Assembly (NCBI RefSeq): GCF_056712565.1
Contig: NZ_CM160072.1
Reading direction: 5' to 3' (one strand)
Length of the DNA: 64,000 nt
Positions 27,001-30,000 of the stretch are shown here, one piece after another; the first letter of the stretch is position 1; every line of letters begins with the position of its first letter. The position numbers were made by a program.

Positions 27001-30000
27001 CAACCAGATGAACTTCGGTATGGTTGACTTGTTCTGCCAGTTCGATCGTCTCTTTGACCAGTTTTTCATTGAGCGCATTATGGTACGGCTCTTCACTGGC
27101 GAGATTCACCGCCACCAGCGCCTTACCCCCTTCCGGCCACGGCTGGTCTTTCACCATCCACACCGGGCTTGGGCATTTGCGTAACAGATGCCAGTCCGTT
27201 GGCGTAAAAATCACCGCTTCCAGACGGTCATGTTGGTGCGCCATTTTTAGCACCAAATCGTGCCCGCCGCTGATCACTTCCTGAATGATGGCTTCGAAAG
27301 GACGGTTATGCCAGACCACTTTAATTTCAATGGGAACGCCAGCATTGAGATAATATTTTGCCTGCTCGTGGATCCAGGCTGTACGCTGGCTGATGACGCC
27401 CTGACGCATAGCGGTACGTTCGTCCGGAGAGAGCAGGGTGGTCATTTCGTATGAGAAGTCATAGATCGGCAAAAAGGCTTTAATTTTGCCACCAATCCGT
27501 TGATGTAAATAAACAGCTCGCCGCAATGCTGGTTGGTCGTCCTGGTTAGGATCGATAACAACGAGCATGTTCTGATACATAGCCATACAGGGTCTCCTTA
27601 CAACAACTGTCAACGCAGTTTGTAATTAAAAGATTAACCCATATCTGGTGAATGAAACAGTGATGAACCTTCTGTCAGATCAATAAATCAGAAAAATTTA
27701 ATGATATGACAGAAGGATAGTGAGTTATGCGGAAGAATCAGGCAACGTTACGCGTATGACCAGCAAGCTGGGCCAGCGCATCGTTATTTTCGATAGTGAT
27801 GTATTTACCTTTGACTGCCAGCATACCGCTTTTCTGGAAGCGACCCAGCAGACGGCTGATGGTTTCAACCGTCAGGCCCAGATAGTTACCGATATCACCA
27901 CGAGTCATCGTCAGGCGGAATTCACGAGGGGAGAAGCCGCGTTGGGCAAAACGACGGGACAGGTTGTAGATGAATGCAGCCAGACGTTCCTCGGCATTTT
28001 TCTTCGACAACAGCAGGATCATGTCCTGATCGCCTTTGATTTCACCGCTCATCAGACGCATCATCTGCTGACGCAGATTCGGCATTTTACCAGACAAATC
28101 GTCCAGCGTTTCGAACGGGATTTCACATACCATCGAGGTTTCCAGCGCCTGCGCGAAACTCGGGTGATGACCGCTGCCGATGGCATCAAATCCCACCAGA
28201 TCGCCTGCTAAATGGAAACCAGTGATTTGCTCGTCGCCTTGCTCAGTGATGGTATAACTTTTAATCGTACCGGAGCGGATGGCATAAAGCGATTTTAGTT
28301 CATCTCCAGCCTTAAACAGCGTCTGGCCTTTCTGAATAGGCTTCTTCCGCTCAATGATATTATCAAGCTGATCAAGCTCATGTTCGTTGAGTGTGAACGG
28401 GATGCAAAGCTGGCTGATGCTGCAATCCTGGCAATGGATAGCACAACCGCCAGACTGAATGCGCCGTATAATTCGCTTTTCCGGGATCATAGGTCTGCTC
28501 AAGCCGTAATTGATATTTGTCAATTTTAACATCTTTTTAGGGAGCAAGTAAGTCTAAGCAAACCTTAACAGCAGAGAATTCCGATATTAGATGTAAATAT
28601 ATGTCTATCTATTTGAAAACCCTTAAGTTGTTAAGGGTGACTTTACATAAAAGTGTGAACAAGCTGGCACAAATTGTTTAATGTTTACAGCAAAAGATAA
28701 CCTTCGTGGCGCAATAACCACTCTTTTCGCTGAACTCCGCCTGCATATCCGGTCATGGTGCCGTTTCGGCCAATAACCCGATGGCAAGGTACGACGATGC
28801 TGATGGGATTCGATCCGTTTGCCGCACCAACGGCACGCGCCGCGCCAGGGCGGCCTAATTGTTCAGCCAGTTGGCCATAATGCATTACCTGCCCGCAGGG
28901 GATAGTGCGCAGTGTTTTCCAGACTTCGCGCTGAAATGGCGTCCCCCCCGTGGCAGTGGGAAGCGTATCAATAATGCTAAGATTACCGGCAAAATATTCA
29001 CGAAGCTTGTCGCTTAAACCACCTGGGTTGGTGGCAGAAATGCGCTCATAGCCTTCTTTGCGATAATGGATGTCCAGCAGCTGCACCATGCGTTCGCTGT
29101 ACTCTTCCCATTCAACCGCCCGCAGGCGAAATTGCTCATCGCAAATCACCCACAGTGGACCCAGTGGCGTGGCAATTTTTTCTTCAAGTAATCTCAGCAT
29201 CCGTTCTCTCTTAAGACAAACGTGGGTAAATACCCGGACCTATCGGCAAGCCAACAAGATACCACGCCAGCAACATCAGCAGCCATACCACCAAAAAGAT
29301 TAATACTAACAAAAAGTAAGTACCAGGTTTCGCGTCTGGTTTGTCGCAGTATTTAAGCATAAAGCGATTTTTTGATTTTTCTGCCTGAAGAAATGAGGGC
29401 AAGCCATCACATGGATCGAGGGTGGGATAATTCCAGTCAGCGAAATTTTACCGTAGGCTATCTGTTATTTGATTCTGTGGCGTGATAGCCGCCAGACACC
29501 ACTGATCTCGTCACTCATTCCCCAATCCCGGCGAGAATGTGGTTATTTACAGAGCTAAAAAATGAATAAAAAAATAGAGCCTGTCGACATCCGCCAGACT
29601 CTACAGTACACACAGCAGTGCATCCTCGTCTTAAATCCGGCCTGGGGTCCTGGTGACCGGTGACAGTGTTATAACGGTTTTACCCATCCGTTGCCAATTT
29701 TCTTCAGTGACAGATTTCACGAAAATATAAGTTAAATCATTTGCCTTGTGATTGCATAATCATGCATCGTTAATCGACGAGTAAATTTACCGGGCGAGTA
29801 GCCCGTTCGACGCTTAAACATATTGCCGAACGATTCAGCTGAGGCATAGCCCAGACGATGGGCAATTTTGGTCAACGAATATCCATCATCAAGAAGCGTC
29901 ACTGCAGAAATAACGTGCATTTGCTGAACCCAGTGGCGAAATGTTAATCCCGTCTCTTTAACAAATAAGCGCATGAGTGTACGGCTACTGACGTTAATTT

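Follow-up and report, generated by a model that had tools for sequence, protein, structure and literature searches.

The reading frame upstream of ogt

The short region between mcaS and ogt raises the question whether a 63-codon reading frame found there is a gene for a small membrane protein or what is left of abgT. Both answers had been proposed in a sequence-only reading of this DNA. In the ORF listing of the window (the whole stretch analysed, 64,000 nucleotides of contig NZ_CM160072.1, assembly GCF_056712565.1) the frame is found on the minus strand as an ORF of 63 aa with a TTG start at 29211..29402 (Table 1), and a 49-aa version is possible from the in-frame internal ATG. The stop at 29211 is separated by 10 bp from the ATG of ogt at 29200, which is the spacing between abgT and ogt also in a K-12-like genome. 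The inferred product has one strongly hydrophobic segment, with an average of 2.9 in the best 19-residue Kyte-Doolittle window (LVLIFLVVWLLMLLAWYLV). ORF listing and hydropathy agree with the earlier description (63 codons, a single hydrophobic helix, an end 10 bp ahead of the ogt start), to which they add the minus strand and the TTG start. The length alone is within chance, since ORFs of 63 aa or more number 202 in the window as compared to about 139 in shuffled sequence, and it is homology to abgT that sets this ORF apart from a random frame.

The window matches the E. coli type strain, ATCC 11775 (= DSM 30083), with 100% identity, and in that strain the ORF is surrounded by fnr, ogt, and genes for an AraC-family regulator, an HlyD/EmrA-like adaptor and a DHA2 MFS pump, followed by smrA. 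In the RefSeq (PGAP) annotation of this strain the positions 29211–29342 are an incomplete pseudogene ('missing N-terminus'), and 29363–29558 a frameshifted pseudogene fragment of the LysR family. If a small membrane protein, the ORF was supposed in the earlier reading to be unannotated, but GenBank already has its 63-aa and 49-aa sequences, exactly or almost exactly, under the names UTI89_C1607, UM146_10095, ECABU_c16190, 'pump protein' and 'AbgT family transporter, partial', as well as c1809 of CFT073, which is the product of the ORF with one residue different. These entries are automatic gene calls only, and current RefSeq (PGAP) has the pseudogene feature instead. The exact 63-aa sequence is found on 245 contigs in the protein collection, and a literature search on the locus tags of the ORF or on an abg deletion in B2 strains returned nothing relevant.

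Table 1. Features of the region from ogt to the genes preceding smrA, with positions in the window.
Feature	Position	Strand	Remarks
ogt, O6-alkylguanine-DNA alkyltransferase	28685..29200	minus	protein identical to K-12-type WP_000945011.1
63-codon ORF	29211..29402	minus	TTG start 29402-29400, internal ATG 29360-29358, TAA stop 29213-29211
abgT 3' remnant	29211..29347	minus	AbgT residues ~461-508 minus 4 codons; blastn, profile matches, PGAP pseudogene
Inferred ogt transcript start	29249	minus	K-12 +1 transferred; ORF codon 52
Extended -10 of ogt promoter	29256..29264	minus	TGGTATCTT, identical to K-12; spacing to ATG unchanged
NarL II equivalent	29286..29301	minus	AATCTTTTTGGTGGTA, 15/16 identical to K-12; first base T in K-12, A here; centre -44.5
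Secondary 12-bp in-frame deletion	29304..29305		CCCTATCCACTT missing, present in K-12 and in Eco889-type remnant; between the two NarL sites
NarL I 7-2-7 site	29307..29322	minus	TACTTACTTTTTGTTA, 14/16 identical to K-12; centre -65.5 (-77.5 in K-12)
Junction of ~5,041-bp deletion, abgT tail to abgR tail	29342..29349		alignment to K-12-like locus
abgR (LysR family) 3' remnant	29357..29558	plus	two frameshifts, in-frame stops; only ~75% identical to intact abgR
McaS/IsrA sRNA gene and terminator	29566..29661	minus	Rfam RF00115, 112.8 bits, E 1e-21
AraC-family regulator	29732-30547	minus	context cluster between mcaS and smrA
EmrA/HlyD-like adaptor	30641-31672	plus	context cluster
DHA2 MFS EmrB-like pump	31669-33183	plus	context cluster

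Homology to abgT

Alignment of the 63 residues to the C-terminus of a K-12-type AbgT by BLASTP shows 42/54 identities, with residues 14–63 of the ORF aligned to AbgT 457–508 (E 2e-22). The Pfam model ABG_transport (PF03806) is matched at positions 459–500 of 502 (E 2.5e-6) with 26.4 bits, just below the cut-off of 27 because the ORF is a fragment, and the NCBIfam AbgT equivalog model (NF008459 / TIGR00819) at positions 460–508 of 508 (E 5e-17), with 61.8 bits against a cut-off of 864. By profile the ORF is homologous to the AbgT family, but the scores stay below the cut-offs for whole proteins, and judged from its sequence it is no functional member of the family. At the DNA level, blastn to the K-12-like locus (L002) pairs window 29150–29347 with L002 9501–9710, comprising the 5' end of ogt and the 3' end of abgT, with a gap of 12 bp. 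When full-length AbgT is aligned to its solved relative 4R1I, the helix of the ORF corresponds to the last transmembrane helix of the transporter. BLASTP, Pfam, NCBIfam and blastn all support the earlier proposal that the ORF is the surviving 3' end of abgT. This holds for codons ~19–63 only, since the ORF is a chimera in which codons 1–18 consist of the junction and the antisense of an abgR remnant.

The deletion junction

The gene order at this locus in the K-12-like genome is ogt-abgT-abgB-abgA-abgR-smrA. In the window the homology to abgT DNA runs from ogt to 29347, and the 3' end of abgR is found at 29357–29558. The homology stops in abgT and starts in abgR within 29342–29349, so that the abgT tail does mark one breakpoint of an abg deletion, as had been proposed. 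As compared to K-12, about 5,041 bp are missing; abgB and abgA are gone completely, abgT for the most part and abgR to three quarters, and the two ends of the deletion share a possible 3-bp microhomology, TGT (L002 9705–9707 and 14746–14748). Searched with a 121-bp probe spanning the junction, a set of 5426 complete E. coli genomes yields 1172 that have it. Eleven deletion-type genomes were aligned (ATCC 11775, Eco889, 2012C-4227, 13P477T, SC434, QL57EC, 'Seattle 1946', ChlosBP-23-1, F11, CU37RT-2 and E69), and the breakpoint is identical in all of them, indicating that there has been a single deletion event.

The abgR remnant divides the collection in the same way, being found with at least 80% identity in 1172 genomes, and intact abgR with 60–80% identity in 4196. 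It is only 75% identical to the intact abgR of both K-12 and FDAARGOS_1280, and window 29357–29767 shows 81% identity to the 3' end of abgR with the downstream sequence of the K-12-like locus; the DNA just past the abgR stop (mcaS and the 3' end of the AraC gene) is 98–99% identical to FDAARGOS_1280. The differences in the remnant are distributed over codon positions 1:2:3 as 17:9:22, with only a weak excess in third positions, and remnants of separate lineages differ from each other by 0–15%, in part through small deletions. Two scans of genome contigs and one protein search gave no closer intact allele, nor any intact AbgR above ~72% aa identity; they returned only E69, which is itself of the deletion type, and the remnant itself. 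Tentatively, we trace the deletion haplotype to a deeply diverged abg allele of Escherichia, with decay since that time. The synonymous divergence of ogt between the window and E69 is 0.31, and a comparable depth thus exists in the region.

The ogt promoter within the remnant

The ogt promoter of K-12 has been dissected by experiment and consists of an extended -10 element and two 7-2-7 NarL sites, NarL I centred at -77.5, which is overlapped by a Fis site, and NarL II at -44.5 (Squire 2009; Ruanto et al. 2020, PMC7419079). All of these elements fall within the last ~40 codons of abgT. In the window the experimentally defined elements map to 29322–29249, that is, inside the ORF, and with the K-12 start point transferred the ogt transcript of this strain should begin at ~29249. 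Since this is inside the ORF, the known ogt mRNA cannot encode the peptide, and the co-transcription with ogt that had been suggested does not take place from the known promoter.

The large deletion stops short of NarL I by ~25 bp on the upstream side (about -110 in K-12 numbering), and the whole characterised promoter (-105 to +1) has therefore survived. The promoter of the window has nevertheless not kept the K-12 spacing of the NarL sites (-77.5 / -44.5). Both sites are recognisable, NarL II without its first T, but the 12-bp deletion between them has moved NarL I from -77.5 to -65.5. A direct repeat that might account for this deletion was looked for, but the two CTTA copies are 13 bp apart and not 12, and slippage between repeats is not proposed. 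In Eco889 and other ST131-type genomes the large deletion is present and the 12-bp deletion absent. With an 85-bp probe the shortened promoter was found in 785 genomes and the full-length promoter in 4388. The shift of NarL I together with the altered NarL II probably changes the control of ogt by nitrate and NarL.

Genomic context

The nearest upstream transcription unit on the strand of the ORF is mcaS. A weak Rfam match to the 'greA leader' at 28536–28644 (E 0.96, 20 bits against a gathering score of 60) was dismissed as chance. Beyond mcaS, window 29768–33367, with the AraC, HlyD and MFS genes, has no counterpart in K-12, and the homology resumes with smrA at 33368. This AraC cluster is present in 1457 genomes. 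In FDAARGOS_1280 intact abgTBAR is followed by the AraC cluster, and the arrangement in the window is, by sequence comparison, that of FDAARGOS_1280 minus 5 kb. A vestige of ~36 bp from the 3' end of the AraC gene remains in K-12, which suggests a loss of the cluster from K-12-type genomes and not a gain here. In QL57EC the abgT and abgR remnants are present without the AraC cluster, and at least four arrangements are therefore in circulation.

Origin and fate of the remnant

Taken together, the ORF is very probably a gene remnant of the abg deletion and not a gene, its DNA having been kept as the promoter of ogt. In this course of events one ancient deletion of ~5 kb took away abgT codons 1 to ~460, both abgB and abgA, and abgR except for its last quarter, so that the ~48 codons left of abgT now adjoin the abgR tail in antisense. 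By chance the abgT frame meets no stop for another ~30 codons upstream, and a 63-codon ORF containing the last transmembrane helix of AbgT therefore stays open. The ogt promoter is contained in the DNA of the abgT tail, with its tandem NarL sites, the overlapping Fis site, the extended -10 and the transcript start, and selection for the expression of ogt, not for a peptide, should have preserved it. The lineage of this strain then underwent the further 12-bp deletion that shifted NarL I, and an alteration of NarL II.

Another reading is that the remnant has been co-opted as a functional single-pass membrane protein of 49–63 aa, expressed by transcription that continues past the McaS terminator or from a promoter that has escaped recognition, and possibly with translation coupled to ogt. 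All but one of the 11 deletion-type sequences have an open frame, among them the diverged E69, which has both the TTG and the ATG and is 95.5% and 91.5% identical to the window in fnr and ogt respectively. The helix is strongly hydrophobic, the ORF has been predicted repeatedly by gene callers, and a 9-bp deletion within the ORF of SC434 is in-frame. Between the window and E69 there are 9 synonymous and 4 nonsynonymous changes in the AbgT-derived codons, giving a pN/pS of about 0.15, which at face value would mean purifying selection on the peptide. Several of these variants (GGT, CTG and GGG near the transcript start) are also present in the intact abgT of K-12, BL21 and others, and we take the low ratio to reflect variation of intact abgT alleles that came in along with ogt through homologous recombination. 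As variants are shared with intact abgT, and as the changes among close relatives are mostly nonsynonymous, the ratio was set aside as a sign of selection on the peptide; promoter function and such recombination explain the conservation equally well.

The start of the frame also argues against a protein. The start codon is a TTG, no Shine-Dalgarno-like sequence was found before it or the ATG, and the internal ATG is lost in the large ST131-type group, being ATA in Eco889. A deletion of ~20 bp in SC434 lies upstream of the TTG and leaves the start in place. In 13P477T a TGG codon of the ORF has become the nonsense codon TAG. Six close relatives have 4 segregating sites in the 192 bp of the ORF, 3 nonsynonymous and 1 synonymous, besides an indel; although these counts are small, the diversity is ~3–8 times that of the neighbouring genes, the values in the same relatives being 0.27% for fnr, 0.78% for ogt and none for mcaS. 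The protein variants in the databases include C19F, L37S, which is inside the helix, M43I, I54T, K17E and P26L. Transcription is no better provided for: the promoter on the abgA side of abgT is deleted, McaS has its own terminator, and a scan for consensus σ70 promoters and terminators from the McaS terminator to the ORF gave no promoter-like site, a weak negative since the known, activator-dependent ogt promoter was missed too. With the ogt transcript starting inside the ORF and the pseudogene call by PGAP, the small membrane protein that the sequence-only reading had offered as its alternative is highly unlikely. The pattern of variation in related strains would fit a decaying remnant, although the pN/pS of about 0.15 towards E69 points the other way, and the ORF is presumably not translated. 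That an orphan AbgT helix is translated as a membrane peptide of 49–63 aa and kept by selection in the roughly one fifth of E. coli with the abg deletion has a slim chance of being right. It would be consistent with the open ORF and the synonymous excess between ATCC 11775 and E69, and would mean a new small protein born from the remnant of a transporter, overlapping the promoter of a DNA-repair gene.

The remnant might also be a purely neutral scar, with an endpoint that happens to lie ~150 bp ahead of ogt and a tail that persists for lack of time and not as a promoter. There is one fixed deletion endpoint, and as the deletion is a single event, selection on the position of the endpoint cannot be inferred. 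Many Salmonella ogt promoters are without the upstream NarL site (Ruanto et al., PMC7419079), so that NarL I is dispensable in some lineages, and the promoter evidently tolerates change, having undergone the 12-bp deletion and the alteration of NarL II. However, the -10 and the core from NarL II to +1 are invariant in all aligned deletion-type sequences, whereas the adjoining abgR remnant has gained frameshifts, stops and deletions of 9–20 bp, and in K-12 the expression of ogt depends on exactly the stretch that corresponds to this promoter region (PMC7419079). We therefore regard a neutral scar as very improbable, and retain the reading of an abgT remnant preserved as the ogt promoter.

The feature is accordingly a remnant already known as a pseudogene, and the variant of the ogt promoter with which it overlaps is known as well. 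For annotation, the ORF is best kept as a pseudogene, and the locus would be better named 'ogt promoter within the abgT remnant'. A plausible small membrane ORF can thus turn out to be what remains at the end of a deleted gene, retained because its DNA is the promoter of the next gene. Re-spaced NarL sites at ogt are a property of ~785 of the 5426 complete E. coli genomes, the type strain and UTI89 among them (and CFT073 according to Ruanto et al.), and could change the nitrate-dependent control of alkylation repair in strains that are also without the uptake and cleavage of p-aminobenzoyl-glutamate.

Comparison with known systems

AbgT is a p-aminobenzoyl-glutamate transporter of the AbgT family, of which the relatives MtrF (4R1I) and YdaH (4R0C) have been solved. 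Like the 3' end of abgT in K-12, the ORF ends 10 bp upstream of ogt, in the same frame and with the last 26 residues identical. It differs in that only ~45 of the 508 codons are left, that four codons (LPYP) are deleted, that its first 18 codons are unrelated sequence, and that it has lost the promoter on the abgA side from which abgT is transcribed in K-12.

The re-spaced ogt promoter variant is already in the literature, having been described in pathogenic E. coli by Ruanto et al. (2020, Biochem J 477:2807, PMC7419079). Supplementary Fig. S4 of that paper gives the promoters of APEC O1, EPEC E2348/69 and UPEC CFT073, which have the same junction and a near-identical shortened sequence; compared as machine-read text, the window differs from them at a base or two. 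The paper remarks on a deletion of ~10 bp and a mutated NarL II in these promoters, and does not discuss the sequence upstream as an abgT/abgR deletion junction. The variant was compared there with the engineered promoter ogt104167, which has its NarL site at -67.5, whereas NarL I of the window is at -65.5 by our own count of a 12-bp shift.

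Architectures of the locus in E. coli

A cluster coding for an AraC regulator, an EmrA-like adaptor and an EmrB-like DHA2 pump lies between mcaS and smrA in the window, and was found in 1457 of 5426 complete E. coli genomes. At least four architectures of the locus coexist in E. coli, namely abg only, abg plus the AraC cluster, abg remnants plus the AraC cluster, and remnants only, as in QL57EC. K-12 is without the cluster and has kept a vestige of about 36 bp of the 3' end of the AraC gene. The pump gene is labelled "frameshifted" by RefSeq in ATCC 11775 and most relatives (31669–33124), but in the window it is an unbroken ORF of 504 residues, matching TIGR00711 over almost the full length (residues 9–496).

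Coordinates in the window
Feature	Position	Strand
ogt	28685–29200	minus
Site of the duplication in E69	~29205–29213	
abgR 3' remnant	29357–29558	plus
mcaS (McaS/IsrA)	29566–29661	minus
AraC cluster	29732–33367	
DHA2 MFS pump gene	31669–33183	plus

Remnants, ogt and mcaS

Every intact E. coli abgR shows an identity of about 75% to the abgR 3' remnant, and no closer allele was found in genome-contig scans and a protein search. The DNA immediately beyond the stop codon is 98–99% identical to FDAARGOS_1280, a genome with intact abgR, and the identity changes abruptly at the end of the remnant. The divergence would reflect either a foreign or ancient origin of the haplotype or else unusually rapid decay of the remnant.

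E. coli E69 (CP089930.1), a diverged genome, has both the junction fusing the abgT and abgR tails and the 12-bp deletion in the ogt promoter as in the window. Its fnr, ogt and smrA genes are only 91–96% identical to those of the window while AraC is 97% identical, which indicates that the region in E69 is a recombination mosaic. Between the stop codon of the abgT remnant and the ogt start, near the ogt ribosome-binding site, E69 also has a 7-bp duplication (CTTAAGC CTTAAGA) that lengthens the ogt 5' UTR.

Across six closely related genomes carrying the junction, ogt has four segregating sites, each of them nonsynonymous (Q to L, P to Q, G to S and E to D), and fnr has two synonymous sites and no nonsynonymous ones. 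In this small sample of six genomes, the pattern might be a slight indication that selection on Ogt is relaxed or diversifying within the clade.

The mcaS sRNA gene, with the abgR remnant on one side and the AraC gene on the other, is of full length (Rfam RF00115, 112.8 bits, E 1e-21). Its identity is 99% to the FDAARGOS_1280 copy but only about 88.5% to that of K-12, with the differences from K-12 mostly clustered in the 5' stem-loop.
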